Assembly (NCBI GenBank): GCA_035540755.1
Contig: DATLGD010000223.1
Span: 152-64,151, forward strand
DNA length: 64,000 nucleotides
Direction: 5' to 3'
DNA from: Mycobacteriales bacterium
Lineage (GTDB): Bacteria; Actinomycetota; Actinomycetes; Mycobacteriales; SCTD01
Shown: positions 8,952 to 64,000 of the stretch, piece by piece
Layout of the letters: every line of letters begins with the position of its first letter
How positions within the stretch are numbered: the stretch's first letter is position 1
The notes under the pieces: generated by a model
What the model was told of the DNA's origin: nothing
What the model saw: only the letters and a program-made list of their open reading frames with translations
Database searches by the model: none
Program-made: the position numbers and the translations under genes

Positions 8952-8963
8952 GGCTGTCGGGCG

Positions 8964-10791: not shown

Positions 10792-10805
10792 CAACACTGG
10801 TGTTG
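10792..10805. promoter_or_regulatory. candidate SufR operator, perfect inverted repeat CAACAC-TG-GTGTTG (CAAC-N6-GTTG)
   Basis: Read directly at 10792-10805, in the divergent region between the ABC ATPase gene and sufR. It matches the CAAC-N6-GTTG inverted repeat I recall being reported for SufR repressors. Confidence 0.55.
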
Positions 10806-14499: not shown

Positions 14500-15329
14500 C
14501 CACGCCCACGAATCGCGCCGGCGGCGCTGAGCTCAGCATCCGCGGCCTCGAGGTCAGCGTCGAGGACAAGCAGATCCTGACCGGCGTCGACCTCACCGTC
14601 CGCTCCGGCGAGACGCACGCGATCATGGGTCCGAACGGCTCCGGCAAGTCGACGCTGGCGTACGCCGTCGCGGGGCACCCCAAGTACGAGGTCACCGGCG
14701 GCAGCATCACTCTCGACGGCGAGGACGTCCTCGAGATGAGCGTCGACGAGCGCGCCCGCGCCGGCCTGTTCCTCGCCATGCAGTACCCGGTCGAGGTGCC
14801 CGGCGTGAGCGTCTCCAACTTCCTGCGCAGTGCCGCCACCGCCGTCCGCGGCGAGGCGCCCAAGCTGCGGCTGTGGGTCAAGGAGCAGAAGGAGGCCATG
14901 GCCCGCCTCGAGATGGACCCCGCCTTCGCCGAGCGCAACGTCAACGAGGGCTTCTCCGGCGGTGAGAAGAAGCGGCACGAGATCCTCCAGCTCGAGCTGC
15001 TCCAGCCGAAGATCGCCGTCCTCGACGAGACCGACTCCGGCCTCGACGTCGACGCGCTGCGCGTCGTGTCCGAAGGCGTGAACCGGGTTCGCGCGACCGG
15101 CGACACCGGTGTCCTGCTCATCACCCACTACACCCGGATCCTGCGCTACATCGAGCCCGACTTCGTGCACGTCTTCGTCAAGGGACGGATCGCCGAGCAG
15201 GGCGGCAAGGAGCTCGCCGACGAGCTCGAGGCCCACGGTTACGCCAAGTACGGCGCCGACGCCGCGGCCCCCGCCGGCCGCCAGCTGCCCACCGGCCCCG
15301 TCCTCCCCGGAGCCGTGACCCCCGCATGA
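14496..15329 (+). CDS. sufC: Fe-S cluster assembly ATPase SufC
   Basis: From ATG 14496 in ORF 13953..15329. Walker [10 protein letters not shown], signature FSGGEKKR, Walker [12 protein letters not shown]. Confidence 0.95.
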
Positions 15330-16609
15330 CGACTGTGGCCCCCGGAGCCCTCGCGGTCGAGCCCTTCGACGTCGAGGCGGTCCGCCGCGACTTCCCGGTG
15401 CTCGCGCGCGAGGTCAACGGGCGGCCGCTGGTCTACCTCGACAACGCCTCCAGCTCGCACAAGCCGGTGCAGGTGCTCGACGCCGAGCGCGCCTTCGTCG
15501 AGCAGCACTACAGCAACGTGCACCGTGGCGTGCACACGCTGTCGCAGGAGGCCACCGACGCCTACGAGGCGGCCCGCGCCACCCTCGCGCGCTTCATCGG
15601 CGCACCGGACCCGCGCGGCGTCGTGTTCACCAAGAACGTCACCGAGGCCGTGAACCTGGTCGCCTACTCGATGGGCAACGCCGCGGCCGGGTCGCGCTTC
15701 GCCCTCGGCCCCGGCGACGAGATCTGCGTCACCGAGATGGAGCACCACTCCAACCTCGTGCCGTGGCAGATGCTCTGCGAGCGCACCGGCGCCACCCTGC
15801 GCTGGCTCCCGCTCACCGACGACGGCCGGCTCGACCTCACCGAGCTCGACTCGCTGGTGAACGAGCGGACCAGGGTGCTGGCGTTCGTGCACCAGAGCAA
15901 CATCCTCGGCACGGTCAACCCCGTCGACGTGCTGGTGGCCCGGGCGCGAGAGGTCGGTGCGCTGGTCTTCCTCGACGCCGCGCAGTCGGTGCCCAACCTG
16001 CCGTTCGACGTCACGCAGATCGGCGCAGACTTCGTCGGCTTCACCGGGCACAAGCTGCTCGGGCCCTCCGGCGTCGGCGTGCTCTGGGCCCGGCCCGAGC
16101 TGCTCGACCAGATGCCGCCGTTCCTCGGCGGCGGCTCGATGATCGAGGTGGTCTCGATGGGCGGCTCCACCTACGCCCCGGCCCCCGAGCGGTTCGAGGC
16201 GGGCACCCCGGTCATCAGCCAGGCCGTCGCGCTGGCCGCGGCGTGCGACTACCTCACCACCGTGGGCCTGGACCGGATCGCACTGCACGAGGCCTCCCTG
16301 ACGCACCGCCTGCTCGAGGGGCTGCGCGGCGTGCGCGGCGTGCGCGTCGTCGGGCCGGACTCGCTCGAGTCCCGCGGCTCGGCGGTCAGCTTCGTCGTCG
16401 ACGGCGTGCACCCGCACGACGTCGGCCAGTCGCTCGACGACCTCGGCATCGCCGTCCGGGTCGGCCACCACTGCGCCGCGCCGGTCTGCAAGCGCTACGG
16501 CGTGCCGGCGACGGCCCGCGCGTCGAGCTACCTCTACAACACGCACGCCGAGATCGACGCGCTCGTCGAGGGCCTCGAGCAGGTCAAGAGCTTCTGGGGC
16601 GCTGGATGA
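15326..16609 (+). CDS. sufS: cysteine desulfurase SufS/Csd (class V aminotransferase)
   Basis: ORF 15326..16609. PLP-lysine region [11 protein letters not shown], catalytic-loop [15 protein letters not shown]-terminus. Confidence 0.9.
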
Positions 16610-48079: not shown

Positions 48080-48904
48080 TCACGGCCGCAGGCGGTCGGC
48101 CCTGGTGTAGACGTTCATCGACGCCCCGCGCAGGAAGCCGATCAGGGTCATCCCGGCCTCGTCGGCCAGGTCGACGGCCAGCGAGCTCGGCGCGCTGACG
48201 GCCGCGAGCACCGGGATGCCGGCCATCCACGCCTTCTGCGCCAGCTCGAACGAGGCGCGGCCGCTGACCAGCAGCACCGTCTCCCGCAGCGGCAGGAGGC
48301 CCTCCCGCAGGGCCCACCCGACGACCTTGTCGACGGCGTTGTGCCGGCCGACGTCCTCGCGCAGGCACAGCAGCTCGCCGTTCGGGTCGAACAGGCCGGC
48401 GCCGTGCAGGCCGCCGGTGCGGTCGAAGACCCGTTGCGCCTCGCGCAGCCGGTCCGGCAGTGCGGCCAGCACCGCGCGGTCGACCGTGACGGGGTCGTCG
48501 GCCACCGGCCACCGGGCGGTCGTGCGCACGGCGTCCAGGCTCGCCTTGCCGCACACGCCGCAGCTGGAGGTCGTGTAGAACGCCCGCTCGACCGAGGGGT
48601 CCGGAGCCGGCACCTCCGGCGCGAGCGCGACGTCGAGGACGTTGTAGGTGTTGGCGCCGTCCGAGGTGGCTCCCGCGCAGTAGCGCTGCGCCGCGACGTG
48701 CTCCGCGGCGCTCACCACCCCCTCGCTGACGAGGAAGCCCGCCGCGAGGTCCATGTCGCTGCCCGGGGTGCGCATGGTCACCGCCAGCGGCCGGCCGCCG
48801 ACCCGGATCTCCAGCGGTTCCTCGACGACGAGGGTGTCGGGACGCTCGACGTCGATGTCGCCGCCCAGGCGCAGCACGCGGCGTCGCGTCGTCGTCCGTC
48901 CCAC
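48080..48904 (-). CDS. fdhD: formate dehydrogenase accessory sulfurtransferase FdhD
   Basis: Last 274 aa of ORF 48080..49312 from GTG 48904 ([13 protein letters not shown]...). SSCGVCGK active-site loop and [11 protein letters not shown] motif. Confidence 0.85.
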
Positions 48905-49013
48905 GGGCAGAGCGTTGCACTTCGGGTCGGCGCACGGCGGGTCGGGTGGTGCGCGTGACGAGGGGTGGGGGAGGGTAGGGCCGCGGCACGCCGGCACGGG
49001 ACGAGGAGCGCGC

Positions 49014-52000
49014 ATGGGTCTGAAGGACACCTTCCTGGGGTGGCCCGTCCTGCGGCAGCTCACCGGCGACGACCCGCTCGGCCGCGGCACTGCCGTGCAG
49101 TCCGCGCGCTCGGCGTCGCTGCAGCCGCGCACCGCGACCGCCGACCGGGTGGTGCGGAGCGTGTGCCCGTACTGCGCCGTCGGCTGCGGGCAGAAGGTGT
49201 TCGTCAAGGACGAGAAGGTCGTGCAGATCGAGGGCGACCCCGACTCCCCGGTCTCCCGCGGCCGGCTGTGCCCCAAGGGCGCGGCCAGCGAGCAGTTCGT
49301 CAACGGCGCCAAGCGCGTGACGACCGTGCGCTACCGGCGTCCCGGCGGCACCGACTGGGAGGACCTCGACCTCGACACGGCGATGGAGATGATCGCCGAC
49401 CGCGTCGTCGAGACCCGCGCCCGCACCTGGCAGGACGTCGACGACCAGGGCCGCAAGGTCCGCCGCACCCTCGGGTTCGCCTCGCTCGGCGGGGCGACGC
49501 TGGACAACGAGGAGAACTACCTCATCAAGAAGCTGTTCACGGCGATGGGGGCGATCCAGGTCGAGAACCAGGCCCGGATATGACACAGCGCCACCGTCCC
49601 CAGTCTGGGGGCCTCCTTCGGTCGTGGCGGCGCCACGAACTTCCTGCAGGACCTGCAGCACAGCGACTGCATCGTCATCCAGGGCTCGAACATGGCCGAG
49701 TGCCACCCGGTCGGCTTCCAGTGGGTGCTCGAGGCCAAGGCGCGCGGTGCGAAGGTCATCCACATCGACCCGCGCTTCACCCGCACGTCGGCGCTGGCTG
49801 ACAGCCACGTCCCGCTGCGCGCCGGCAGCGACATCGCCTTCCTCGGCGGCGTCATCAACCACATCCTGTCGACGGAGTCGTACTTCCGCGAGTACGTCGT
49901 GGCGTACACCAACGCGGCGACGATCGTCGGCGAGGACTTCCAGGACACCGAGGACCTCGACGGGCTGTTCTCCGGCTACGACCCCGAGACCGCCACGTAC
50001 GACACCGAGAGCTGGGGCTACCAGCACTCGCCGGGCGGTCCGGCCGACGCGCAGGAGAACGACGACGAGAGCGCCCTGTCCGAGCGGAAGCGCGCGGCGG
50101 GTCACGAGCTCGGCGGCCACGGCGCGACGCTCGAGGGCTACGACGTCGAGCGCGACGAGACGCTCCAGCACCCGCGCTGCGTCTTCCAGGTGCTCAAGCG
50201 GCACTACGCCCGCTACACCCCGGAGGTCGTGGAGGAGGTCTGCGGCGTGCCGCAGCACCTGTTCCGCGAGGTGTGCGAGGCGGTCGTGGCCAACAGCGGC
50301 CGCGAGCGCACGACGGCGTGGGTCTACTCGGTCGGCTGGACCCACCACTCCACCGGTGTGCAGTACATCCGCGGGTCGGCGATTATCCAGCTGCTGCTCG
50401 GCAACATGGGCCGTCCAGGCGGCGGCATCCTGGCGCTGCGCGGGCACGCGAGCATCCAGGGCTCGACCGACATCCCGACCCTCTACAACATCTTGCCGGG
50501 CTACCTGCCGATGCCCAAAGCGGGGGAGCACGACGACTTCGGGGACTACCTCGAGGCGATCCACGAGCCGGGGCAGAAGGGCTTCTGGGCCAACGCCGAC
50601 GCCTACGTCGTCAGCCTGCTCAAGGCCTACTGGGGAGAGGCGGCGACACCGGACAACGGCTTCTGCTTCGACTACCTGCCGAGGCTGACCGGCGACCACG
50701 GCACCTACCGCACCGTGATGGACATGGTCGACGGCAAGGTCGAGGGCTACTTCCTCGTCGGGCAGAACCCGGCCGTCGGCTCCGCGCACGGGAAGCTGCA
50801 GCGGCTCGGCATGGCGAACCTGAAGTGGCTCGTCGTGCGCGACGTGAACATGATCGAGTCGGCGACGTTCTGGAAGGACGGGCCGGAGATCGCGACCGGC
50901 GAGCTGCGCACCGAGGACATCGACACCGAGGTGTTCTTCCTCCCGGCCGCCACGCACGTGGAGAAGGCCGGCACGTTCACGCAGACGCAGCGGATGCTGC
51001 AGTGGCGGCACAAGGCGATCGACCCACCGGGTGACTGCCGGCCCGAGCTGGACTTCTACTACAAGCTCGGCGTCCTGGTGCGCGAGCGGCTCGCCGGGTC
51101 GACGCTCGAGCGCGACCGGCCGGTGCTCGACCTCGCCTGGGACTACCCGGTCGACGAGCACGGCGAGCCCGACGCCGAGTCGGTGCTGGCCGAGATCAAC
51201 GGCCGGTTCCTGACCGGACCCCGCGCGGGCCAGCCGCTCGACGGCTTTACCGACATGCGCGCCGACGGCTCCACCGACGGCGGCTGCTGGATCTACAGCG
51301 GCGTCTACAAGGACGGCGTCAACCAGTCGGCGCGACGCAAGCCGCACACCGAGCAGGACTGGGTCGCGAACGAGTGGGGTTGGGCCTGGCCGATGGACCG
51401 GCGCACCCTCTACAACCGCGCCTCGGCAGACCCGGACGGCAGGCCGTGGAGCGAGCGCAAGGCCTACGTCTGGTGGGACGAGGAGCAGCAGCGCTGGACC
51501 GGGCACGACGTGCCGGACTTCATCGCCGACCGGCCGCCGTCCTACCGGCCGGGGGAGGGGGCAACCGGCGTCGACGCACTGGCCGGTGACGACCCGTTCG
51601 TCATGCAGGGCGACGGCAAGGGCTGGCTGTTCGCCTCGACGGGTCTGCTCGACGGGCCGCTGCCGGCCCACTACGAGCCGCACGAGTCGCCGGTCGTCAA
51701 CCCGCTGTACGCCCAGCAGGGGAACCCCACGCGGCAGGTGTTCCGGCGCGAGGACAACCCGTCGAACCCCTCGGCCACCGAGCGGGGCGGCGACGTCTTC
51801 CCGTACGTCTTCACCACCTACCGGCTCACCGAGCACCACACCGCCGGCGGCATGAGCCGGTGGGTGCCGTACCTGTCCGAGCTGCAGCCGGAGTTCTTCT
51901 GCGAGGTCTCGCCGGAGCTCGCCCGCGAACGCGGTCTCGAGCACCTCGGCTGGGCGACCATCACGACCGCGCGCACCGCCATCGAGGCGCGGGTGCTGGT

Positions 52001-52316
52001 CACCGACCGCATGGTGCCGCTGCACGTCGGCGGCAAGGTGATCCACCAGATCGGGTTGCCGTACCACTGGGGTGTCGGGGACGACGCCGTCGTCAGTGGC
52101 GACTCGGCGAACGACCTGTTCGGCCTGGCGCTCGACCCGAACGTGCACATCCAGGAGAGCAAGGTGGCCAGCTGCGACATCACGCCGGGACGCCGGCCGA
52201 CCGGCCCCGCTCTGCTCCGGCATGTCGAGCGGTACCGCGACCGCGCCGGCATCACGACGGCCACCGGCAACTTCCGCAGCGACGCCGAGCCCCGACCCGC
52301 AGGAGAAGCCCGATGA
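49014..52316 (+). CDS. fdhA: formate dehydrogenase catalytic subunit (Mo/W-bisPGD), selenocysteine-containing; TGA 49581-49583 read as Sec
   Basis: ORFs 48753..49583 and 49692..52316 are in the same frame (starts both divisible by 3). ATG 49014 follows GAGGAG. Motifs: CPYCAVGCG 4Fe-4S motif; read-through gives [28 protein letters not shown], which parallels the Sec site of E. coli FdnG; [10 protein letters not shown]. Confidence 0.9.
49584..49633 (+). promoter_or_regulatory. candidate bacterial SECIS stem-loop immediately 3' of the Sec TGA
   Basis: Inner hairpin GTCCCCA-GTC-TGGGGGC (49596-49612) starts 12 nt after the TGA. An outer helix pairs GCGCC (49588-49592) with GGCGC (49629-49633). 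The apical sequence CAGUCUG resembles the fdhF CAGGUCUG loop. Confidence 0.5.
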
Positions 52317-53338
52317 GCAGCAGCAACAGCCTGTTCGGGCCCCTCGACCCGGCGCCCGACGCGGGCTGGACCGAGGCGCCGCCGCGCAAGGGGTTCTTCA
52401 CCGACACCTCCATCTGCATCGGCTGCAAGGCCTGCGAGGTGGCGTGCAAGGAGTGGAACGCCGTCCCGGACGACGGCATGCAGCTGCTCGGCTCCTCCTA
52501 CGACAACACCGGTGCCCTCGGCGCGAGCACCTGGCGGCACGTCGCCTTCATCGAGCAGCCGAAGCCGCTCGGGGCGCAGGAGCCGGGCATGGCCGGCACC
52601 GCCGCCGGCCCGCCCGCGACCGACGTGCTGAACCGGACCGCGGAGAGCGCGCTGGCCGGCGACCGGAGCAAGCTCGGCACCGACAGCACGGCCGTCGACC
52701 TCGGCATGCCGGGCACGCAGCTGCCCGGCGAGGCCGATGGCGCGCAGCGCAGCGAGTTCCGCTGGCTGATGGCCTCCGACGTCTGCAAGCACTGCACGCA
52801 CGCAGGCTGCCTGGACGTCTGCCCGACGGGGGCGCTGTTCCGCACCGAGTTCGGCACGGTCGTGGTGCAGGACGACATCTGCAACGGCTGCGGCTACTGC
52901 GTGGCCGCATGCCCCTTCGGCGTCATCGACCGGCGGGTGGGGGACAAGGGCGTCACCAAGAACGCCGGCATCGCGCAGAAGTGCACGCTCTGCTACGACC
53001 GGCTCGGCGACGGGCTGCAGCCGGCCTGCTCGAAAGCATGCCCGACCACCAGCATCCAGTTCGGCGACCTCGACGAGCTTCAGGAGCGCGCGCAGAGGCG
53101 GGTCGAGCAGCTGCACGAGGCAGGCGTCACGTCGGCCCGGCTGTACGGCGAGGACGAGAACGACGGCGTCGGGGGCGTGGGGGCGTTCTTCCTGCTGCTC
53201 GACGAGCCGGAGGTCTACGGGCTGCCGCCGGACCCGGTCGTCACGACCAAGGACCTGCCGGCCATGTGGCGGCAGGCCGGGCTCGCCGCCCTGACGATGC
53301 TCGCCGGCGCCGTCGCGGTGTTCGGGGTGCGCCGGTGA
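52313..53338 (+). CDS. formate dehydrogenase Fe-S (4x[4Fe-4S]) subunit with a C-terminal TM anchor
   Basis: ATG 52313 (ATGA overlap with fdhA). Cys clusters CIGCKACEVAC, CKHCTHAGCLDVCP, CNGCGYCVAACP, CTLCYDR...CSKACP. C-terminal helix AGLAALTMLAGAVAVFGV. Confidence 0.9.
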   Translation: MSSSNSLFGPLDPAPDAGWTEAPPRKGFFTDTSICIGCKACEVACKEWNAVPDDGMQLLGSSYDNTGALGASTWRHVAFIEQPKPLGAQEPGMAGTAAGPPATDVLNRTAESALAGDRSKLGTDSTAVDLGMPGTQLPGEADGAQRSEFRWLMASDVCKHCTHAGCLDVCPTGALFRTEFGTVVVQDDICNGCGYCVAACPFGVIDRRVGDKGVTKNAGIAQKCTLCYDRLGDGLQPACSKACPTTSIQFGDLDELQERAQRRVEQLHEAGVTSARLYGEDENDGVGGVGAFFLLLDEPEVYGLPPDPVVTTKDLPAMWRQAGLAALTMLAGAVAVFGVRR

Positions 53339-54450
53339 CGGCGACCTCCCCGCGCGACCCGGTCGGCACGCCGAGCACCGGGCCGGAGGCTTCCGCGGTC
53401 CCCGGTTCCGCGGGTCGGCACAAGGACAAGGGCAAGGGCAAGGGCAGGGGTGGGCGCGGCGACAAGAACGCGGTCGTGCCGCCGGCGGAGTTCACCTCGT
53501 ACTACGGGCGCCCCGTCGTCAAGGCCTCGCCGTGGGAGCACGACATCCCCGCCTACCTGTTCCTGGGCGGCGTGGCCGCCGGCTCGTCACTGCTGGCCGC
53601 CGGGGCCGACCTGACCGGCCGACCGGCGCTGCGCCGGACCGGTCGGCTGGCGTCGCTGGTGGGTCTGACGCTGAGCATGCTGGCGCTGGTCAAGGACCTC
53701 GGTCGCCCCGAGCGCTTCCACCACATGCTGCGCGTGGTGAAGCCGACGTCGCCGATGTCGGTGGGCACCTGGCTGCTGACGCTCTACGGCCCGTTCGCCG
53801 GGCTCGCCGCCGCCGGGGAGCTGCGCGGGCTGCTGCCGAGGCGACTGCGCGACGGCGTGGCCGGCCGGCTGCTCGGCGCCTCTGCCCGCCCGGCGGGGCT
53901 GACAGCCGCCGTCGTCGCGCCCACGATCGCGTCCTACACCGCCGTGCTGCTGTCCGACACCGCCACGCCCACCTGGCACGACGCGCACCGGCACCTGCCG
54001 TTCGTGTTCGTCGGCTCGGCCGCGGCCGCCTCCGGCGGGCTCGGGATGATCGGTGCGCCGGTCCACGAGGCCGGGCCGGCCCGGCGCCTGGCCATCGGCG
54101 GTGCGCTGCTCGAGCTGGCCGTCGAGCGCAGGATGGAGCAGGCGATGGGGCTGACCGCCGAGCCGCTCCACCAGGGGCACGCAGGACAGCTCATGCGGGC
54201 CAGCAAGGTGCTCACCGCCGCCGGCGCGGCCGGGGCGCTGCTGCTCGGCGGACGCAGCCGCACCGCGGCCGCGGTGTCCGGCGCGGCGCTGATGGCCGGA
54301 TCCGCCTGCCTGCGCTTCGGGTTCTTCGACGCGGGGCAGGACAGCGCCCGCGACCCCAAGTACACCGTCGTCCCGCAGCGCGAGCGCCTCGAGCGCGGCG
54401 AGGCGGTCCGGCACGGGGGTTCCCGCCCGTCCGCCGAACCCGAGAGGTAG
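53335..54450 (+). CDS. NrfD/PsrC-like polytopic membrane subunit
   Basis: GTG 53335 (GTGA overlap with fdhB). After a basic low-complexity N-terminus come about 8 TM segments (WEHDIPAYLFLGGVAAGSSLLAA...) typical of NrfD-family quinone-interacting subunits. The exact start is uncertain. Confidence 0.75.
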   Translation: MTATSPRDPVGTPSTGPEASAVPGSAGRHKDKGKGKGRGGRGDKNAVVPPAEFTSYYGRPVVKASPWEHDIPAYLFLGGVAAGSSLLAAGADLTGRPALRRTGRLASLVGLTLSMLALVKDLGRPERFHHMLRVVKPTSPMSVGTWLLTLYGPFAGLAAAGELRGLLPRRLRDGVAGRLLGASARPAGLTAAVVAPTIASYTAVLLSDTATPTWHDAHRHLPFVFVGSAAAASGGLGMIGAPVHEAGPARRLAIGGALLELAVERRMEQAMGLTAEPLHQGHAGQLMRASKVLTAAGAAGALLLGGRSRTAAAVSGAALMAGSACLRFGFFDAGQDSARDPKYTVVPQRERLERGEAVRHGGSRPSAEPER

Positions 54451-54453
54451 CCG

Positions 54454-55878
54454 ATGTCCCTGGTCTCCTTCCTGGACCGTGAGCACTCCGTCGCTCCCGC
54501 CGGGTACAGCCGATGGCTGGTGCCGCCGGCGGCGCTGGCCATCCACCTGTCGATCGGCCAGGTCTACGCGCTGAGCGTCTTCAAGACCCCGCTGGTCGAG
54601 CGGTTCGAGACCAGCGAGACAGCGATCGCCATCGTGTTCTCGATCGCGATCGTGATGCTGGGGCTGTCCGCCGCCTTCGGCGGGACGTGGATGGAGCGCA
54701 ACGGTCCGCGCAAGGCCATGGCCCTGTCGGCGGTCTGCTTCGTCACGGGGCTGCTGGTCGGCGGCCTCGGGATCGCCACCGGCCAGCTGTGGCTGCTCTA
54801 CCTGGGTTACGGGGTCATCGGCGGCATCGGGCTCGGGTTGGGCTACATCTCGCCGGTCTCGACGCTCATCAAGTGGTTCCCCGACCGTCCCGGACTCGCG
54901 ACCGGGCTGGCCATCATGGGCTTCGGCGGCGGCGCGTTCATCGCCTCCAACCTGTCGAACGAGCTGCTCGGCGCCTACACCTCGCTGCCGGCGGACGCCG
55001 TGCCGACCGACGCGGTGGCGCCGGCCTTCTTCACCCTGGCGCTGATCTACGCGCTGTTCATGACCTTCGGCGTGCTCACCGTGCGCGTCCCGCGCGACGG
55101 CTGGAAGCCCGAGGGGTACGAGCCCAAGGCCGACAGCGGCGGGCTGCGCACCACCGCGCACGTGGCCGCGAGCGAGTCCATCAAGACCCCGCAGTTCTGG
55201 CTGCTCTGGACGATCCTGTTCTGCAACGTCACCGCCGGCATCGGCATCATCGAGCAGGCCTCGCCGATGATCCGGGACTTCTTCCCGGACGACGTCAGCC
55301 CGGCCGCGGCGGCCGGCTTCGTCGGACTGCTGTCGCTGGCCAACATGGCCGGGCGCATCGTCTGGTCGTCGACGTCCGACGCCATCGGCCGCAAGCCGAC
55401 CTACATGCTCTACACCGGCGTCGGAGCCGTCGCGTTCTTCTTCCTGGCCACGGCGGGCGACACCAGCGTCCTGCTGTTCGTGGTGCTGGCGGCGGTCATC
55501 CTGAGCTTCTACGGCGGTGGCTTCGCGACGATCCCCGCCTACCTCAAGGACCTGTTCGGCACCTTCCAGGTGGGTGCCATCCACGGCCGGCTGCTGACGG
55601 CCTGGTCCGCCGCCGGCGTCGCGGGTCCGCTCATCGTCAACGGCATCATCGAGCGCCAGCGCGACGCCGGGGTCGAGGGGGCGGCGACCTACCGGCCGGC
55701 GCTGCTGGTGATGGTCGGCCTGCTCAGCATCGGCTTCGTGGCGAACCTGCTCGTGCGCCGGGTGGCCGACAGGCACCACGCCAGCGCCGACGTCCTGGGC
55801 ACCTATCCGGGCGTCACCAGCCAGCAGACCACCGGATCCGCGAAGACGGCCCCGAGCGCCTCAGGAGGCACCCGATGA
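54454..55878 (+). CDS. MFS transporter, oxalate/formate antiporter (OFA) family
   Basis: ORF 54454..55878. Twelve TMs. N-terminal RWLVPPAALAIHLSIGQVYALSVF and LGYGVIGGIGLGLGYISPVSTLIKWFPDRPGLATG are OFA-family signatures. Confidence 0.85.
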   Translation: MSLVSFLDREHSVAPAGYSRWLVPPAALAIHLSIGQVYALSVFKTPLVERFETSETAIAIVFSIAIVMLGLSAAFGGTWMERNGPRKAMALSAVCFVTGLLVGGLGIATGQLWLLYLGYGVIGGIGLGLGYISPVSTLIKWFPDRPGLATGLAIMGFGGGAFIASNLSNELLGAYTSLPADAVPTDAVAPAFFTLALIYALFMTFGVLTVRVPRDGWKPEGYEPKADSGGLRTTAHVAASESIKTPQFWLLWTILFCNVTAGIGIIEQASPMIRDFFPDDVSPAAAAGFVGLLSLANMAGRIVWSSTSDAIGRKPTYMLYTGVGAVAFFFLATAGDTSVLLFVVLAAVILSFYGGGFATIPAYLKDLFGTFQVGAIHGRLLTAWSAAGVAGPLIVNGIIERQRDAGVEGAATYRPALLVMVGLLSIGFVANLLVRRVADRHHASADVLGTYPGVTSQQTTGSAKTAPSASGGTR

Positions 55879-55997
55879 GCGAGCAGTACAGCGGCGTCAA
55901 GGCGCGCCTGGTCGGAGCGTGGCTGTTCGTGGGCATCCCGCTCGCCTACGGCATCGTGCAGACCGTCCGCCGGGCCGCCGCCCTGTTCACCGGCTAG
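55875..55997 (+). CDS. 40-aa single-TM microprotein translationally coupled to the OFA transporter
   Basis: ATG 55875 (ATGA overlap), AGGAGG 7 nt upstream. MSEQYSGVKARLVGAWLFVGIPLAYGIVQTVRRAAALFTG. Confidence 0.5.
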   Translation: MSEQYSGVKARLVGAWLFVGIPLAYGIVQTVRRAAALFTG

Positions 55998-56977
55998 CGG
56001 ACCTCGACCACCGCGTCGCGCCGGGCGACCACCTCGCCGACGATCGGTGCGCCCGGCACCTCGCCGACGACGAGCAGGCCACCGCTGGTCTGCGCGTCGG
56101 CGAGCAGCAGCAGCTCGTCCTCCTCGACGGATGCCGACAGGTGCGGGCGCACCCAGTCGAGGTTGCGCCGGGTGCCGCCGCTGACGTAGCCGTCGGCCAG
56201 CGAGCTGCGCGCACCGTCGAGGTAGGGCACGGCGGCGGCGTCGACGACGGCCGTGGTGCCGCTGGCGCGCATCATCTTGAACAGGTGCCCGAGCAGGCCG
56301 AAGCCGGTGACGTCGGTGGCCGCGCGTGCCCCGCTCTCCACCGCAGCCCGGGCGGCGTCGCGGTTCAGGCGCGTCATGCACTCGACCGCGTGCTCGAACC
56401 GCTCGCCGGTCGCCTTGTGCCGGTTGTTGAGCACGCCGACGCCGAGCGGCTTGGTGAGGCTGAGCGGCCGGCCCGGCTCGGCGGCGTCGTTGCGCAGCAG
56501 CGCGCCCGGGTCGACGACCCCGGTGACCGCCATGCCGTACGTCGGCTCGGGCCCGTCGACGCTGTGGCCGCCGGCGACCGGGCAGGCGGCCTGCCGGGCG
56601 ACGTCGGCGCCGCCGCGCAGCACCTCGCCGAGCAGCTCGGCCGGCAGCAGCTCGCGCGGCCAGGCGACCAGGTTGATGGCGACGACCGGCCGGCCGCCCA
56701 TCGCGTACACGTCCGACAGCGCATTGGCCGCCGCGATGCGACCCCAGTCGTAGGCGTCGTCGACCACCGGGGTGAAGAAGTCGGCCGTGCTGACGACGGC
56801 GGTGCGGGCGTCGAGGCGCACGACGGCGGCGTCGTCGCCGTCGTCGAGCCCGACGAGCAGGTCCGGTCCCGCGGCACCGGTCAGCCCGCGCACGGCGTCC
56901 TCGAGCTCACCCGGCGGGATCTTGCAGGCGCAGCCGCCGCCCTTCGCCAGCTGGGTCAGCCGAAGCGTCGTCGTCAC
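55994..56977 (-). CDS. selD: selenide, water dikinase (selenophosphate synthetase), Cys form
   Basis: ORF 55994..56977 (GTG start). Glycine-rich N-terminal loop LAKGGGCACKIPP, then DDAAV and the AIR-synthase-like fold. No in-frame TGA. Confidence 0.9.
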   Translation of the reverse strand: MTTTLRLTQLAKGGGCACKIPPGELEDAVRGLTGAAGPDLLVGLDDGDDAAVVRLDARTAVVSTADFFTPVVDDAYDWGRIAAANALSDVYAMGGRPVVAINLVAWPRELLPAELLGEVLRGGADVARQAACPVAGGHSVDGPEPTYGMAVTGVVDPGALLRNDAAEPGRPLSLTKPLGVGVLNNRHKATGERFEHAVECMTRLNRDAARAAVESGARAATDVTGFGLLGHLFKMMRASGTTAVVDAAAVPYLDGARSSLADGYVSGGTRRNLDWVRPHLSASVEEDELLLLADAQTSGGLLVVGEVPGAPIVGEVVARRDAVVEVR

Positions 56978-57075
56978 CTGCGAGAGGCTAGGTCAGCCGG
57001 TGAGCGCGCGCTCGCGCTAGAGCGCTGGGGCCTCCGCCACCACGGTCGGGACGTCGAGGTGGGTGTTGCCCGTCG

Positions 57076-57558
57076 TCAGGTGCCGGCGCGGTACTGGGCC
57101 AGCAGGCGCTCGGCCTCGTCGGCGCCGGACTGCTCGACGAGGACCTCGTACCGGGCCGCGGCCAGGCCCTTGGTGGAGCTGAAGTCGCGCCGACCGCCGG
57201 TGGCCCGGTGAGCGGCGAACCCGAGCGCGGCGCCGAAGGCGGCGCCGAACAACAGCCCGTACAGGGCCAGTCCGAGCAGGGCCGTGCCGGACTCGGCGAA
57301 CAGGCCGACGAACAGGCCGAGGAGCAGCCCGAACCAGCTCATCGAGGCGGCGCCCGCGAGCGCCGCCTTGCCGGTCGTCAGGCGCCCGGTGACCTGCTCG
57401 ACGAGGCGCAGGTCCGCGCCGACGATGGTCACCGTCTCGACCGGGAAGCCGTGGTCGGACAGGTGGTCGACGACGGCCTGCGCCTGCTCGTACTGGGGCC
57501 AGGAGCCGAGCGCGTGCCGGCCCACCGGAAGGGGGCGGGGTGTGCCTGGTGTGGTCAT
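57076..57558 (-). CDS. membrane protein with an N-terminal general-stress-protein-17M (YflT)-like domain
   Basis: ORF 57076..57558. SWPQYEQAQAVVDHLSDHGFPVETVTIVGADL, then two glycine-zipper TM helices. Lies between selO and selD on the same strand. Confidence 0.6.
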   Translation of the reverse strand: MTTPGTPRPLPVGRHALGSWPQYEQAQAVVDHLSDHGFPVETVTIVGADLRLVEQVTGRLTTGKAALAGAASMSWFGLLLGLFVGLFAESGTALLGLALYGLLFGAAFGAALGFAAHRATGGRRDFSSTKGLAAARYEVLVEQSGADEAERLLAQYRAGT

Positions 57559-57628
57559 GGCCTCGGCCTACCCGGCTGGGCGGCCGGGCAGCCGGCTCGT
57601 CTGCGTGACGTCGCCGACGTCGATCCGG

Positions 57629-59089
57629 TCAGGTCCCGCAGAAGGTCCGGTAGGAGCTGTCCTCGGGGCCGGGTGCGGCGTAGCGCTCCAGGCCCGGGCG
57701 CTCGTCGAACGGGGCGGTGACCGCTGTGAGCAGCCGCTGGAGCGGGTCCAGGTCGCCGGCGGTGCCGGCGTCGAGGGCCTCCTCGACGAGGTGGTTGCGC
57801 GGGATGTAGACCGGGTTCACGCGGTCCATCGCCGCTCCGTCGGGCGCGAGGGCCTGCCAGCGCTGCAGCCAGGCGTCGACCGCCGCGAGGTCGAGCACGA
57901 GGCCGCGCGCCGGCTCGGTGTCGCCGCGGGCGGCCTGCCCCAGCGCCCGGAAGAACGAGGTCAGGTCGACGTGGTTGGCCTGCAGCAGGGCCAGCAGCTC
58001 CTCGACGAGCGGGCGGACGACGTCGTCGTCGTCGCCGTCGGTCAGCCCGAGCTTGCGGCGCATGCCGGCCGTCCAGGCGGCGCTGTACTGCGGCCGGTAG
58101 CCGCCGAGCGACTCGACGGCGAGGGCGATGGCCTGCTCCTCGTCGTCGTGCAGCAGCGGCAGCATCGCCTCCACCAGCCTGGCCAGGTTCCACTCGGCGA
58201 CGACCGGCTGGTTGCCGTAGGCGTACCGGCCGCCGGTGTCGATCGAGCTGAACACCCGGGCCGGGTCGAAGGCGTCGAGGAAGGCGCAGGGGCCGTAGTC
58301 GATGGTCTCGCCGGAGATCGTGGTGTTGTCGGTGTTCATGACCCCGTGGACGAAGCCGACGAGCATCCACTGCGCCACCAGAGACGCCTGCGCGGTGACG
58401 ACCGCCTCGAACAGGGCGCGGTAGGGCTGCTCGGCGTCGGCGGCCTCGGGATGGTGCCGGGCGATGGCGTGGTCGGCCAGCCGGCGCAGCAGCGCGACGT
58501 CGCCGGTCGCGCGGGCGTACTGGAAGGTGCCCACGCGCAGGTGGCTGCTCGCGACCCGGGCGAGCACCGCTCCGGGCAGCGGCGTCTCGCGCCGCACCGT
58601 GCGGCCGGTGCCGACGACGGCCAGGGCCCGGGTGGTCGGGATCCCGAGCGCGTGCATCGCCTCGGCGACGACGTGCTCGCGCAGCATCGGACCGACCGCG
58701 GCCAGGCCGTCGCCGCCACGGGCGAAGGGGGTGCGCCCGCTGCCCTTGAGGTGCAGGTCGCGCGGTCGACCGTCCTGGCAGGCGAACTCGCCGAGCAGCA
58801 GCGCCCGACCGTCACCGAGTCGCGGGTTGAAGCCGCCGAACTGGTGCCCGGCGTACGCCTGCGCCACCGGTGTGGCGCCGTCGAGCACCAGCGTCCCGAC
58901 CAGGAAGCGCAGCCCCTCGGAGGTGCGCAGCCAGTCGGGGTCCAGGCCGAGCTCGACGGCCAGCGGCTCGTTCAGCACCAGCAGCCGCGGATCCGGCGCG
59001 TCCTCGGCCTGCCAGCGCACCGCCAGCTCGGGCAGCTCGCGGGCGAAGCGGTCGTCGAGCAGCGTGCGGGGCACGGCGGGGACGTTCAT
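57629..59089 (-). CDS. selO: SelO/YdiU-family protein adenylyltransferase (AMPylase), Cys form
   Basis: In ORF 57629..59122. ATG 59089 preferred, GTG 59122 possible. [61 protein letters not shown]-terminus ...YRTFCGT. Confidence 0.9.
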
Positions 59090-59167
59090 CGTCCGACGGT
59101 ACGTGCCGGCCGGTTGTGGCACCCTGCACGTCGGTCACGGACGAGCGCTCGGTGCGGTCGTGGTCGA

Positions 59168-59260
59168 GGAGGCGTACGCGTGCCTGGTGGCCGTCCCGGT
59201 CTTCAAAACCGGTGTGGGCGAGGATCTCGTCCAGGTGGGTTCGATCCCCATCCGCCTCCG
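59168..59260 (+). tRNA. selC: tRNA-Sec (anticodon UCA)
   Basis: Hand fold: acceptor GGAGGCG/CGCCTCC (7 bp); 6-bp D-stem with one bulge and a UGGU loop; anticodon arm CCGGU-CUUCAAA-ACCGG; long variable arm GGGCGAG-GAU-CUCGUCC; T-arm GGUGGG-UUCGAUC-CCCAUC (6 bp); discriminator G. The acceptor plus T helix totals 13 bp. CCA is not encoded. Confidence 0.9.
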
Positions 59261-59349
59261 CCGACGAGTTGCCGTCCGGGCCGGTTCCGCCGCCCTCGGC
59301 GCGGGCAGACCGTCGCCGACGCGCACGACCGACGACGCGAGGAGACACC

Positions 59350-59514
59350 GTGGGGCTGCTGGGCGGGATGATCAAGGCCGGCGTGGCCAAGAAGGTCTAC
59401 GACGAGGCGCGCAAGCCGCACAACCAGGCGAAGATCAAGCAGATGCTGTCGAAGGCGACGGGCAAGGGGTCGGGCGGGACAGGCAGCAGCGGCCCGGGCG
59501 CCGGGCAGCCCTGA
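59350..59514 (+). CDS. small Lys-rich protein (54 aa), hypothetical
   Basis: GTG 59350 with GAGGAG 6 nt upstream. VGLLGGMIKAGVAKKVYDEARKPHNQAKIKQMLSKATGKGSGGTGSSGPGAGQP. A Lys-rich composition with high GC3 is unlikely for a shadow frame. Confidence 0.35.
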   Translation: MGLLGGMIKAGVAKKVYDEARKPHNQAKIKQMLSKATGKGSGGTGSSGPGAGQP

Positions 59515-59535
59515 GCGCACGGTCGGCCGGCAGTC

Positions 59536-59781
59536 TCACCGGGGGCCGGCCTGCCGGCGCAGCGACTCCTGTCCGGCGGCCACGGCTCCGCGCAGCCGGC
59601 TCAGGCGCTCCGCCCGGTCGCGGCGGGCGGCCGCGTCGTCCGGCGGGGGGAGCGCGGTCAGCCGCTCGGCGAGGGCATGGGCGTGCAGGACCACGACGGC
59701 GGTGCGCTGCACGCCGACCTCGACGTCGCCCGCCGCGTCTTCCAAGGGTGAGGACGGACGGCGGCGCTGCGATCGGTCCAT
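59536..59781 (-). CDS. hypothetical protein (81 aa)
   Basis: Last 81 codons of ORF 59536..62106 from ATG 59781, with GGAGG 5 nt upstream. No family recognised. Confidence 0.35.
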   Translation of the reverse strand: MDRSQRRRPSSPLEDAAGDVEVGVQRTAVVVLHAHALAERLTALPPPDDAAARRDRAERLSRLRGAVAAGQESLRRQAGPR

Positions 59782-59943
59782 GACACCTCCTGCCGGCCCA
59801 GGGTCAGGTGCGCCGATCAGCGCAGTGCACCACGCCCGGACGCCGGTCGAGGACACGAGCTGGTCACGACTGGGCGGTGCGGGATCGAGCTGGCGCTGCG
59901 CCGCCCGGCTGCTCCGCAGCCGGTCCGACGTAGGGTCCGAGAC

Positions 59944-61257
59944 GTGACAGCGGTCGAGCCGGACCGGCGACGCGCGGTGCCGCGCACCGACGCCGTGCTC
60001 GCCGACCCGCGCCTGGCGCGGGCCGCCGAGCGGCTCGGACGCGAGCGGGTGAAGCGAGCCGTCCGCGAGGCTCAGGACGCCGTCCGCACGGGCCGGCTGG
60101 CGCCCGACCAGGTGGCCGACGCCGCCGTCGCCGCTCTGCCGCCCCGCACCACGACGCTGCGGCCGGTGCTGAACGCCACCGGCGTGGTCGTGCACACCAA
60201 CCTCGGCCGGGCGCCGCTGTCGGCCGCGGCCGTCGAGGCGCTGCAGACCGCCGCCGGCAACGTCGACGTCGAGTACCACGTCGCCACCGGCCAGCGGGCG
60301 CGGCGCGGTCGGGGCGCGCTCGCCGCCCTGCACGCCGCCGTCCCCGACGCCGAGGCGGTGCACGTGGTCAACAACGGGGCGGCCGCCCTCGTGCTCGCGA
60401 CCACGGCGCTCGCCGCCGGCCGCGAGGTGGTGGTCAGCCGCGGCGAGATGGTCGAGATCGGCGACGGCTTCCGGCTCCCGGACCTCATCGCGTCCACCGG
60501 CGCCCGCCTGCGCGAGGTCGGCACCACCAACCGCACCACAGTGAGCGACTACGCCGACGCCGTGGGCCCGGACACCGGCTGCGTGCTCAAGGTGCACCCC
60601 AGCAACTTCCGGGTGGCCGGCTTCACCGGCGCTGTGGACGTCGCCGAGCTCGCCGGGCTCGACGTTCCCGTCGTCGTCGACATCGGCAGCGGCCTGCTCG
60701 CGCCGCACCCGCTGCTGCCCGACGAGCCGGACGCGCGGACGGCGCTGCGCGGCGGGGCCGAGGTCGTCACCGCGAGCGGCGACAAGCTGCTCGGCGGTCC
60801 GCAGGCCGGGCTGCTCCTCGGTCGCGCGGGCGTCGTCGAGCGGCTGCGCCGGCACCCGCTCGCGCGCGCCCTGCGGGTCGACAAGCTGACGCTGGCTGCG
60901 CTCGAGGCGACGATCGACGGACCGCCCACGCCGGTGCGCCTGGCGCTCGACGCCGACCCTGCCGGGCTGCGCGCGCGGGCGGACGCGCTCGCCGCCGACG
61001 TCGGGGGCGACGTCGTCCCGAGCGACGGCGCGGTCGGAGGCGGCGGGGCACCCGGCCTGCTCCTGCCCGGCTGGGCGGTGGCCCTCCCGGAGGACCGTGC
61101 TCCCGACGCCTGGGCGCTCGCGCTGCGCACCGGCGAGCCCTGCGTGGTCGGGCGGGTCGAGCGCGGCCGGTGCCTGCTCGACCTGCGCTGCATCGCCCCG
61201 GCCGACGACGCGTCGGTCGCGGCGGCCGTCACCGCCGCCGCCGGCGCGGCGGGGTAG
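59944..61257 (+). CDS. selA: L-seryl-tRNA(Sec) selenium transferase
   Basis: ORF 59944..61257 (GTG start). LRPVLNATGVVVHTNLGRAPL, VVNNGAAALVL, PLP-lysine region ASGDKLLGGPQAG. Confidence 0.9.
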   Translation: MTAVEPDRRRAVPRTDAVLADPRLARAAERLGRERVKRAVREAQDAVRTGRLAPDQVADAAVAALPPRTTTLRPVLNATGVVVHTNLGRAPLSAAAVEALQTAAGNVDVEYHVATGQRARRGRGALAALHAAVPDAEAVHVVNNGAAALVLATTALAAGREVVVSRGEMVEIGDGFRLPDLIASTGARLREVGTTNRTTVSDYADAVGPDTGCVLKVHPSNFRVAGFTGAVDVAELAGLDVPVVVDIGSGLLAPHPLLPDEPDARTALRGGAEVVTASGDKLLGGPQAGLLLGRAGVVERLRRHPLARALRVDKLTLAALEATIDGPPTPVRLALDADPAGLRARADALAADVGGDVVPSDGAVGGGGAPGLLLPGWAVALPEDRAPDAWALALRTGEPCVVGRVERGRCLLDLRCIAPADDASVAAAVTAAAGAAG

Positions 61258-61260
61258 CGC

Positions 61261-63048
61261 GTGCACGTCGTCGCGACCGCCGGGCACGTCGACCACGGCA
61301 AGTCCACGCTGGTGCGCGGGCTGACCGGCACCGAGCCGGACCGCTGGGCCGAGGAGCGGCGCCGCGGCATGACCATCGACCTCGGCTACGCCTGGACCGA
61401 GCTGCCGAGCGGTGAGCAGGTCGCGTTCGTCGACGTCCCCGGCCACGCCCGCTTCGTCGGCAACATGCTCGCCGGGCTCGGGCCCGCGCCGGCCGTGCTG
61501 TTCGTCGTCGCCGCCGACGAGGGCTGGCGCCGGCAGTCCGGCGAGCACCTCGCCGCCGTCGACGCGCTCGGCCTGTCGGCGGGTCTGCTGGCGGTGACCC
61601 GCAGCGACCTCGCCGACCCCGCCCCCGCGATCGAGGAGGCGAGGGAGCACCTGTCCCGCAGCAGCCTCGGCGACGTCGAGGCGGTCGCGGTGTCGGGTCA
61701 GACCGGCGCCGGACTGGACGTGCTGCGCGCCGCCCTCGACCGGCTGGTCGCCCGGCTCCCGGTGCCCGACACCGTCGGGCCGGTCCGGCTGTGGGTCGAC
61801 CGCGCCTTCACCGTGCGCGGTGCCGGCACGGTGGTCACCGGCACCCTGGGCGCCGGTGCGCTCGCCGTCGGCGACGAGCTCGAGCTGCGCGGGCGCCGGG
61901 TGCGGGTGCGCGGCCTGCAGTCGCTCGAGCAGCCCCGGGAGCGGATGGGTGCGGTGGCGCGCGTGGCGGTGGCGCTGCGCGGCGTCGAGCGCGCCGACGT
62001 CGGCCGCGGGGACGCCCTGCTCGCCCCGGGACGGTGGCGGGCCGCTTCGACGCTCGACGTGCGGCTCCGGCCCGCGGGCACCCTGCCCGAGCGGCTGGTG
62101 CTGCACGTCGGCACGGCGGCGGTGCCGGTGCGGCTGCGGCCGCTGCGCGACGACCTCGCGCGGCTGCAGCTCAGCACTGCGCTGCCGCTGCGGGCCGGCG
62201 ACCGCGCCCTGCTACGCGACCCGGCGGCGCAAGAGGTGGCCGCGGGCGTCACGGTCCTGGACGCCGACCCGCCGGACCTCCGTCGGCGCGGGTCGGCCCG
62301 CGAGCGCGCTGCCGTGCTCGCCGGGACGACCGGCCCGCCGGACGGGATCGCGGAGGTGGAGCGCCGAGGCGCGGTGCGCCGCGCCGACCTCGAGGCGCTG
62401 GGCGTGCCGGTCCCCGACGGCGGGCGCAGTGCCGGCGGCTGGCTGGTCAGCGAGCAGCGGTGGCAGGTCTGGCGGGCCGAGCTGCGCCGGGTCGTCGAGC
62501 AGCACGACGCCGTGGCGCCGCTGGACCGGGGGCTGCCGCACGACGCCGCACGGCGCGCCGCCGGCATCCCCGACCTCGCCGTGCTCGCTGCGGTGGCCGG
62601 GGACGCCGAGCTCGTCGACGAGGCGGGCCGGCTGCGCAGCACGCAGGAGCTCGGCCTGGGGTCGGCCGAGCCCGGGGTCCGGGCGCTGGAGGAGCGGCTG
62701 ACCGCCGGCCCCTTCGCCGCACCGGAGCGGCCGGACCTCGACGCGCTCGGCCTCGACGTCCGCGCGGTCGCCGCCGCCGCCGCCGCCGGCCGGCTGCTGC
62801 GGCTGCGCGCCTCCGACGGCGGCGACGTCGTGCTGCTGCCCGACGCGCCGGCGCGGGCGATGCGCGAGCTCGCCCGGCTGCCCCAGCCGTTCTCGCTCAG
62901 CGCCGCCCGCCAGGCCCTCGGCACGACGCGGCGGGTGGCCGTCCCGCTGCTCGAGCACCTCGACGCGCGCGGCTGGACCCGCCGGGTCGACAGCTCCGCG
63001 CGCGAGGTGGTGCGCGGCGGGAGTGCGGCGTCGGGCCCGCCCCGATAG
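61261..63048 (+). CDS. selB: selenocysteine-specific translation elongation factor
   Basis: ORF 61261..63048 (GTG start, 3 nt after selA). G domain [21 protein letters not shown]-terminal winged-helix extension. Confidence 0.9.
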
Positions 63049-63080
63049 CGTGCGCGTCCCCGCACCCGAGGAGGACCGCC

Positions 63081-64000
63081 GTGCCCCAGTCCGTCCGTGG
63101 AGTCGTCGCCCGAGGCAAGGGCCAGCCGGTGACGGTGGAGACCGTCGTCGTGCCCGACCCGGGGCCGGGTGAGGCGGTGGTCGCGGTGCAGGCATGCGGG
63201 GTCTGCCACACCGACCTGCACTACCGCGAAGGCGGCATCAACGACGAGTTCCCGTTCCTGCTCGGGCACGAGGCGGCCGGGATCGTCGAGTCCGTCGGCG
63301 AGGGCGTCGCCGAGGTGGCGCCGGGCGACTTCGTCATCCTCAACTGGCGAGCGGTCTGCGGCCGGTGCCGCGCCTGCAGCCGCGGCGACCACCACCGCTG
63401 CTTCAACACCTTCAACGCCGTGCAGAAGATGACGCTCGAGGACGGCACCGAGCTCTCGCCTGCCCTCGGCATCGGCGCCTTCGCCGACAAGACGCTGGTC
63501 GCGGCCGGGCAGTGCACGAAGGTCGACCCGGCCGCCGACCCTGCCGCGGCCGGACTCATCGGCTGCGGCGTCATGGCCGGCTGGGGTGCTGCGGTCAACA
63601 CCGCGCCGGTCCGCAAGGGCCAGTCCGTCGCCGTCATCGGCTGCGGCGGCGTGGGCGACGCCGCGATCGCCGGCGCGCTGTTCGCCGGCGCACGGCAGGT
63701 CCTCGCCGTCGACATGGACGACCGCAAGCTGCAGTGGGCCCGGGAGTTCGGCGCCACCGACACGGTGAACGCGAAGACCGAGGACGTCGTCGCGCGGCTC
63801 AAGGAGCTGACCGGCGGCTTCGGGCCGGACGTCGTCATCGAGGCGGTCGGCCGGCCCGAGACCTACCGGCAGGCGTTCGAGGCCCGCGACCTCGCCGGCA
63901 CCGTCGTGCTGGTCGGCGTGCCGACGCCGGACATGACCGTCGAGCTCCCGCTGATCGAGGTGTTCGGCCGCGGCGGCGCGCTGAAGTCGTCCTGGTACGG
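63081..64000 (+). CDS. mscR: S-(hydroxymethyl)mycothiol dehydrogenase (class III ADH, MscR-like), 3' end beyond the window
   Basis: Not in the ORF track (open at the edge). GTG 63081 after [75 protein letters not shown] closely matches the mycobacterial enzyme as I recall it. Confidence 0.85.

Follow-up and report, generated by a model that had tools for sequence, protein, structure and literature searches.

Selenocysteine machinery clustered with its formate dehydrogenase client in a Mycobacteriales genome

Gene content of the locus

A 64-kb stretch of DNA (hereafter the window; G+C 74.6%) from a Mycobacteriales bacterium (assembly GCA_035540755.1, contig DATLGD010000223.1) carries, in the region treated here (window 48080-64000), the genes for making and decoding selenocysteine (Sec) alongside those of a membrane-bound, Sec-containing formate dehydrogenase (FDH; Table 1). 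With SelA, SelB, SelC and SelD encoded beside fdhA, a client with a UGA codon and a selenocysteine insertion sequence (SECIS), the Sec-decoding trait appears to be complete at this locus. Real genes were picked among many overlapping open reading frames (ORFs) using frame bias in the G+C content of third codon positions (GC3) together with family matches. All of the Sec-pathway proteins score above the curated NCBIfam equivalog cut-offs, and nothing was found that speaks against the gene assignments. The genes listed in an initial annotation of the sequence (fdhD, fdhA, fdhB, an NrfD-like subunit, a transporter, selD, selO, tRNA-Sec, selA, selB and mscR) were all recovered at about the positions it had assigned, but it had overlooked a 40-aa small subunit of the major facilitator superfamily (MFS) carrier, a YflT gene and two small ORFs.

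The genes fdhA, fdhB, fdhC and those of the MFS carrier and its small subunit are tightly coupled, by 4-nt overlaps or a 3-nt gap, and a 3-nt gap also separates selA from selB, which is followed by mscR after 32 nt; the operon boundaries of the block are putative. A promoter and terminator consensus scan of the block returned nothing above chance and is uninformative at 75% G+C. The closest well-flanked relative (locus L007) has an fdhD orthologue that is 80% identical and likewise divergent in position, and exact copies of the MFS and YflT proteins are encoded on metagenome contigs; an exact-sequence search with SelB gave no match.

Table 1. Features of the selenocysteine and formate dehydrogenase block, with positions in the window
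Feature	Position	Strand	Evidence and remarks
fdhD, formate dehydrogenase sulfurtransferase/maturation factor	48080-48904	-	Pfam PF02634 FdhD-NarQ 240.2 bits; divergent from fdhA; start chosen from sequence
fdhA, Sec-containing catalytic subunit of membrane-bound formate dehydrogenase	49014-52316	+	1100 codons including UGA; NCBIfam NF041513
UGA Sec codon (residue 190)	49581-49583	+	in-frame TGA within QARI-U-HSATV
SECIS upper hairpin, GUCCCCA-GUC-UGGGGGC	49596-49612	+	starts 12 nt after UGA; comparative pairing
fdhB, four-cluster iron-sulfur subunit with C-terminal hydrophobic helix	52313-53338	+	Pfam Fer4_11 and related 4Fe-4S domains
fdhC, NrfD-family integral membrane (quinone-side) subunit	53335-54450	+	Pfam NrfD 65.5 bits, NrfD_2 42 bits
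MFS transporter, oxalate/formate-monocarboxylate clade	54454-55878	+	NF049980 SfMCT 338 against cut-off 320
MFS transporter small subunit, 40 aa	55875-55997	+	NF047966 MFS_OXA_tail_dom 59.2 bits against cut-off 24
selD, selenophosphate synthetase	55994-56977	-	TIGR00476 388.8 bits against cut-off 125
YflT-domain general-stress protein	57076-57558	-	Pfam PF11181 76.7 bits
selO/ydiU	57629-59122	-	Pfam SelO 359.8 bits; NF000658 YdiU family 508.4 bits
selC, tRNA-Sec, 95 nt	59168-59262	+	ARAGORN anticodon TCA (UCA); Rfam RF01852 71.9 bits against gathering score 47
54-aa ORF in the tRNA-Sec/selA spacer	59350-59514	+	GAGGAG upstream; GC3 0.96; called as a gene on near-identical contigs
81-aa antisense ORF in the same spacer	59536-59781	-	doubtful gene; GC3 0.90, lowest codon score of the block; called on one contig
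selA, selenocysteine synthase	59944-61257	+	Pfam SelA 320.3 bits and Se-cys_synth_N; TIGR00474 413.2 against cut-off 267.9
selB, Sec-specific elongation factor	61261-63048	+	Pfam GTP_EFTU, Beta-barrel_SelB, SelB-wing_3; TIGR00475 272.2 against cut-off 242.25
mscR, S-(hydroxymethyl)mycothiol dehydrogenase	from about 63081, cut by the window end at 64000	+	first 306 codons; TIGR03451 556.5 bits against cut-off 512.9

The selenocysteine codon of fdhA and its hairpin

A single TGA lies in frame in fdhA, within a motif that corresponds to the catalytic Sec-His position of FDH-N-type enzymes. The two halves of the protein give an end-to-end match to the model NF041513 ('formate_DH_Act'; cut-off 1400), with 342.7 bits before the TGA (profile positions 3-185) and 1611.7 bits after it (positions 187-1066 of 1067). 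SelD was used as the query to fetch a comparison set of 80 loci from the representative genomes of GTDB, the closest relatives from outside the same population reaching a SelD identity of about 84%. The Sec site of fdhA was readable in 54 of these loci and the homologous codon was TGA in every one.

Beginning 12 nt 3' of the UGA, a 17-nt hairpin with a 7-bp stem and the loop GUC is predicted in the fdhA message. Across an alignment of 55 actinobacterial fdhA hairpins, with pairing scored over the 52 distinct sequences, 98.6% of the pair cells hold standard pairs, compared to 28-69% when the 3' arm is slid by 1-3 columns, and none of 500 shuffles matched the observed pairing values. The third base pair of the stem is C-G in 28 sequences and U-A in 18, a compensatory change, and since it joins the synonymous third positions of a Val and a Gly codon, this coupling is not explicable by protein coding. 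The Rfam model RF01989 SECIS_3 aligns from the UGA through the loop (25.1 bits, E 0.002 in a 401-nt search). The hairpin appears to combine the characteristics of a bacterial SECIS, namely a stem-loop at a fixed distance, a G/U apical loop and pairing under selection, and the alignment, with its covariation between synonymous sites, is a by-product that should be of use in its own right.

The proposal that FdhA is the only selenoprotein visible in the window agrees with a TGA scan of all 64 kb, in which fdhA was the only true TGA-interrupted reading frame. Two other TGAs, at 28482 and 24293, were considered as marking further selenoprotein genes and rejected as ordinary gene boundaries, the downstream Pfam domains beginning at residues 15 and 3.

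Automatic gene callers break fdhA into products of 189 aa and 874 aa, as would be expected if the TGA really ended translation or marked a pseudogene, with the sel genes as relics, and in some contigs from the same population the SelD core is shortened in frame by 17 aa, a deletion that might mean decay in part of the population. Such a history is nevertheless extremely improbable, given that the TGA occupies the catalytic Sec position in all of the readable relatives, that both halves of fdhA keep full-length family scores and coding-type GC3, that the downstream hairpin is conserved with covariation, and that the sel genes are all intact and above the equivalog cut-offs.

SelD is the Cys form of the enzyme (motif GGGCACK) and is not itself a selenoprotein. 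The SelD deletion corresponds to window 56646-56696 (codons ~97-113), where PVVAINLVAWPRELLPAEL is replaced by QQL, and it was seen twice independently, in the metagenome assemblies ENA ERZ27256757 and Logan SRR8438992 from the same population (loci L082/L086 and L087). The full SelD core is present in the window and in ERZ27256763, and the deletion may represent either true inactivating variation or an error of assembly.

Synteny, inheritance and the junctions around tRNA-Sec

Synteny was counted over 10-kb flanks at the 50 well-flanked loci, in which selD has 8 kb or more of sequence to either side. At 32 of the 50, tRNA-Sec, selA, selB and fdhABC all fall within 10 kb of selD, bearing out the contiguity across related genomes that had been anticipated, and most of the other loci are incomplete only through insertions that push a component out of range. 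The recurrent order, selB<selA<tRNA-Sec<>selD...fdhC<fdhB<fdhA and sometimes then fdhD, is found in Mycobacterium, Mycolicibacter, Gordonia, Actinoplanes, Plantactinospora, Pedococcus, Terrabacter, Knoellia, Arthrobacter, Brevibacterium, Nocardioides, Saccharopolyspora, Nakamurella, Jatrophihabitans and many metagenome-assembled genomes (MAGs). The block had also been described as compact, but from selB to fdhA it spans 14.0 kb in the window compared to a median of 11.3 kb, and is looser than is typical. Two of the well-flanked loci, both in Pseudonocardiaceae MAGs (L039, L046), hold an orphan selD whose 10-kb surroundings lack tRNA-Sec, selA, selB and fdhA, in line with the 'orphan SelD' actinobacteria that Peng et al. 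2016 list (PMC5029168).

The components of the trait also share a history. Among the 38 genomes having all of SelD, SelA, SelB and FdhA, the Kimura distance matrices of the four proteins correlate in every pair (Mantel r 0.74-0.83, p = 0.0005); rank correlations of identity to the window were weak (rho 0.09-0.65), and the full pairwise matrices were used instead. In the neighbour-joining trees of both FdhA and SelB, Mycobacterium falls into two distant clades, the first beside Nocardioides and Micromonosporales with the order fdhCBA-selBA-selC-selD, the second beside Gordonia and Arthrobacter with fdhCBA on the other side of selD. If the whole block were co-transferred, FdhA and SelB should conflict with the taxonomy in common, and the two-clade pattern, which matches the two mycobacterial clusters already reported (PMC13449736), fits this expectation. 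The suggestion that the Sec machinery lies beside its client as a co-inherited unit is therefore sustained, for the phylum at large, by the synteny, by the invariant TGA, by the matrices, by the shared tree conflict and by the literature.

The mycobacterial cluster described by Behra et al. 2026 (RNA Biol; PMC13449736) shares with the window selC directly upstream of selA-selB on one strand, a divergent selD, and a Sec-FDH gene nearby with a SECIS after its UGA; the mycobacterial loci in the comparison set have the same order, with proteins 64-70% identical. The window differs in that selO and yflT part selD from selC and that 680 bp with two small ORFs part selC from selA, in the MFS carrier and small subunit appended to fdhABC, and in the presence of mscR after selB. 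For the two spacer ORFs (54 aa and 81 aa), neither family matches nor counterparts in relatives were found; the 54-aa ORF is Lys-rich, with a Gly/Ser tail and a good ribosome-binding site. A hypothetical gene between selC and selA has been noted in some mycobacteria (Behra et al., PMC13449736).

Both junctions of tRNA-Sec are recurrent insertion sites, holding inserts of 1-8 kb and multi-kb inserts in about a quarter of the relatives, between tRNA-Sec and selA (L006, L009, L010, L024, L027, L043, L049, L056 and others) or between selD and tRNA-Sec (L025, L028, L045, L048, L059). The 20 insert genes sampled are unrelated and ordinary (MFS, GGDEF, BTAD regulator, methyltransferase, COX1, SSF symporter, DUF222-HNH, phosphoenolpyruvate (PEP)-utilising enzyme, APH, aldehyde:ferredoxin oxidoreductase). 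The idea that tRNA-Sec serves as an integration hot-spot was rejected, there being no integrase among these 20 genes and no repeat of the tRNA 3' end in the window. In a Frankiales MAG (L009, 8214-10001), a tungsten-type aldehyde:ferredoxin oxidoreductase gene (AFOR_N/AFOR_C, 199 and 328 bits) shares the strand of selD and terminates immediately 5' of it.

The initial annotation had counted selO among the Sec-decoding genes. SelO is a Cys-containing protein adenylyltransferase (an AMPylating pseudokinase) that owes its name to a eukaryotic selenoprotein and not to a role in Sec synthesis. As no orthologue of SelO or YflT was found near selD in any of the 80 related loci, SelO was rejected as a conserved sel neighbour, and selO and yflT appear to be a lineage-specific insertion between selD and tRNA-Sec, where relatives usually have ~50-150 bp. 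The two genes could instead be functional in the selenium system of this lineage, with SelO, for example, co-transcribed with selD and modifying or regulating Sec-pathway proteins, since selO, yflT and selD lie on one strand with gaps of merely 70 and 98 nt, they fill a position that is nearly empty in relatives, and the arrangement is repeated in several independent metagenome contigs of this population. Such a role is very improbable: besides the lack of any match in the 80 sel loci, the same junction in other lineages holds unrelated genes (DUF222-HNH, PEP-utilising enzyme, metal hydrolase, phosphoesterase), and SelO, YdiU and 'selo' are absent from a comparative-genomic screen for selenium-linked genes (PMC5322559). 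For annotators, 'SelO' should not be counted as selenium machinery.

The patchiness of the trait, its movement between actinobacterial lineages (PMC5029168 Table 2; PMC13449736; the two Mycobacterium clades) and the variable junctions on either side of tRNA-Sec, with their multi-kb inserts, might suggest that the block is a recently acquired genomic island, inserted horizontally as a mobile unit and possibly using tRNA-Sec as an attachment site; the L,D-transpeptidase and MscR that flank it are, moreover, not conserved beside the cluster in relatives. Transfers of the Sec trait within the Actinobacteria, from Microlunatus to Arthrobacter and from Nakamurella to Arthrobacter, have been described (Peng et al. 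2016, PMC5029168). Composition argues against a recent arrival in this genome, the genes of the block having a GC3 of 0.946-0.979 and a score resembling the codon adaptation index of 0.72-0.81, compared to 0.957 +/- 0.019 and 0.777 +/- 0.051 for 26 flanking genes. The proteins of the block and of its flanks that were scanned against Pfam include no match to an integrase, transposase or phage family, the window has a single copy of the 3'-terminal 24 nt of tRNA-Sec with no att-type repeat, and the inserts at the same junctions elsewhere are ordinary genes without an integrase in the sample. The left flank is core housekeeping, with the heme O and heme A synthases (a ctaB-like UbiA prenyltransferase and COX15/CtaA), sufB, sufD and a class-V aminotransferase (SufS-like) at window 1842-16609, as well as an ABC-F protein and an acyl-CoA dehydrogenase, which places the block in the core chromosome. 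The FdhA of the window groups with those of Frankiales, Nakamurella and Jatrophihabitans, which also provide the best SelD matches, as vertical descent predicts. A recent island is therefore improbable here, and the block is either ancestral to the lineage or an old, fully ameliorated acquisition.

The formate dehydrogenase, its neighbours and the biological meaning

The solved structures nearest to FdhA belong to E. coli FDH-N (FdnGHI, 1KQF) and Desulfovibrio FdhAB (1H0H, 6SDR), whose catalytic subunits are homologous (584-599 bits over the part after Sec) and which have in common with the enzyme of the window the Sec-His motif, an Fe4S4 site (CxxCxxxC) at the N-terminus and a beta subunit that has four clusters and a C-terminal helix. 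The enzyme differs from the E. coli type, with its exported alpha subunit and cytochrome b gamma subunit, in several ways. The N-terminus of FdhA (window 49014-49170; L004-L079) is conserved and hydrophilic (WPVxRQLtG.D.LGRG), and neither FdhA nor about 50 homologues have an RRxFLK twin-arginine motif or a hydrophobic leader, unlike E. coli FdnG/FdoG with their twin-arginine translocation leader, which suggests that the catalytic site faces the cytoplasm. The membrane partner belongs to the NrfD family, in contrast to the dihaem cytochrome b FdnI of FDH-N; fdhC has no solved relative by sequence, and it neighbours fdhB in relatives as well. FdhA scores 803 against the FDH-N alpha model TIGR01553 (cut-off 814.2) and FdhB 171 bits against the FDH-beta model TIGR01582 (cut-off 334.7), FdhB being set apart from the FDH-N and Desulfovibrio enzymes by an Ala/Gly/Pro-rich, low-complexity insert of ~65 residues (residues ~75-140) after the first ferredoxin-like cluster motif. 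Behra et al. (PMC13449736) name the mycobacterial enzyme FDH-O; with an alpha subunit that has no export leader and an anchor of the NrfD type, here and in relatives, this label is loose for the actinobacterial Sec-FDH.

The MFS carrier had been assigned to the oxalate/formate family, but it falls below the cut-offs of the corresponding models (TIGR00890 OFA, 187.7 against 374.85; TIGR04259, 133.3 against 335), and the best model is that of an SfMCT-type monocarboxylate carrier, the L-lactate model NF049980, which it passes. Its PDB matches are SfMCT (6G9X, 115 bits) and OxlT (8HPJ, 72.8 bits), and with these it shares, in addition to the SfMCT cut-off, a small partner of the NF047966 family. 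The 40-aa partner ORF is translationally coupled to the MFS gene, its start overlapping the stop of that gene (ATGA), and its end overlaps the stop of selD; it was called as a gene on a near-identical contig. Neither characterised relative of the carrier imports formate as its main substrate; import of formate, or of another small carboxylate, is suggested by the operon context.

The initial annotation had extended the block into a one-carbon (C1) island that included mscR. The gene does lie directly 3' of selB in the window, and on a metagenome contig that matches 19.5 kb of the window at 99.8% identity and continues beyond its right end (ENA ERZ27256763 k141_293447; L081, 60.4 kb) it is complete (361 aa, TIGR03451 665.6 bits) and is followed, with a 4-nt overlap, by a gene for a 209-aa metallo-beta-lactamase (MBL)-fold hydrolase. 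An MBL-fold hydrolase is usually proposed as the partner enzyme that releases formate from S-formylmycothiol by hydrolysis, and a C1 route from formaldehyde through formate to CO2 is biochemically sensible where mscR and this hydrolase stand beside the FDH block. No MscR orthologue was found near selD in the 80 loci, where the matches are distant paralogues of the alcohol dehydrogenase family (27-38% identity); mscR was accordingly rejected as a general conserved neighbour, and its link to the block appears to be a lineage-specific local juxtaposition and not a conserved module.

The gaps of 32 nt and of 70 and 98 nt, together with the gene orientation, do allow an outside chance that the Sec system has become wired into stress and C1-detoxification transcription units in this lineage. 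In that case transcription of selA-selB would continue into the genes of mscR and the MBL-fold hydrolase, a selO-yflT stress operon would drive selD, and the Sec-FDH might be co-induced by formaldehyde or oxidative stress. The arrangement behind this suggestion was found only in this population.

With a probability of about 0.9, the locus is a standard actinobacterial cluster of Sec machinery and formate dehydrogenase in the core chromosome of an uncultured, Frankiales/Jatrophihabitans-like actinobacterium. Under this interpretation, SelD would make selenophosphate, and SelB would bring Sec-tRNA-Sec to the ribosome once its C-terminal winged-helix domain has bound the 17-nt hairpin located 12 nt past UGA-190. 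Sec-190 would be a ligand of the Mo/W-bis-molybdopterin guanine dinucleotide centre of FdhA, a cofactor matured by FdhD. The C-terminal helix of FdhB, together with FdhC, would hold the FdhA/FdhB dimer in place, and FdhA would oxidise formate, with electrons passing through the iron-sulfur clusters of FdhB and the NrfD-type FdhC to, we infer, menaquinone. The MFS carrier and its small subunit may import formate or a related carboxylate, while the mscR/MBL-hydrolase pathway would make formate inside the cell; a cytoplasmic orientation of the enzyme agrees both with an importer of carboxylates in its operon and with an adjacent internal source of formate.

A number of observations weigh against this interpretation. 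The fdhA hairpin falls short of the SECIS_3 gathering score of 63, no Rfam SECIS model being matched at its gathering threshold, and a single-sequence fold of the region is no more stable than those of shuffled sequences (z = 0.45), so that the support for the SECIS comes from comparison across genomes and not from thermodynamics or an Rfam threshold. The status of FdhA as the sole client is confined to the 64 kb of the window. The catalytic dimer is probably on the cytoplasmic face, a placement for which the lack of a recognisable leader is the single ground, and the carrier has a lactate, and not a formate, carrier as its best model. Finally, the neighbour-joining trees, which are without bootstrap support, are supportive of co-inheritance and not conclusive.

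Clustering and transfer of this kind have been published (PMC1794560, PMC5029168, PMC13449736), and the interpretation of the linkage is correct but not new. In the survey by Behra et al. 2026 (PMC13449736), the same synteny was found in about 40% of 244 mycobacterial genomes, a single selenoprotein FDH was predicted, and both gain and loss of the trait were inferred. Operons of selA-selB-selC with a neighbouring fdhA are known from Alpha- and Betaproteobacteria and from Pseudomonadales (PMC1794560; Romero et al. 2005, PMC1273633; PMC5029168). These systems share with the window the clustering of the decoding genes with fdhA, there the sole selenoprotein gene of the organism, and differ in phylum and gene order; in Pseudomonadales selD evolves separately, with ybbB, whereas the actinobacterial selD is in the cluster and has the same history. 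According to Zhang et al. 2006 (PMC1794560), transfer of Sec decoding requires both clustered sel genes and a client that travels with them.

Within the FDH family itself, the lack of an export leader and the NrfD-type anchor are a useful observation. The sel genes and a UGA/SECIS client are useless without each other, and their linkage lets the trait be inherited, lost or transferred in one piece. The locus is one more case of a published rule, by which bacteria with a single selenoprotein keep the Sec machinery beside fdhA, with the trait moving or vanishing as a whole.

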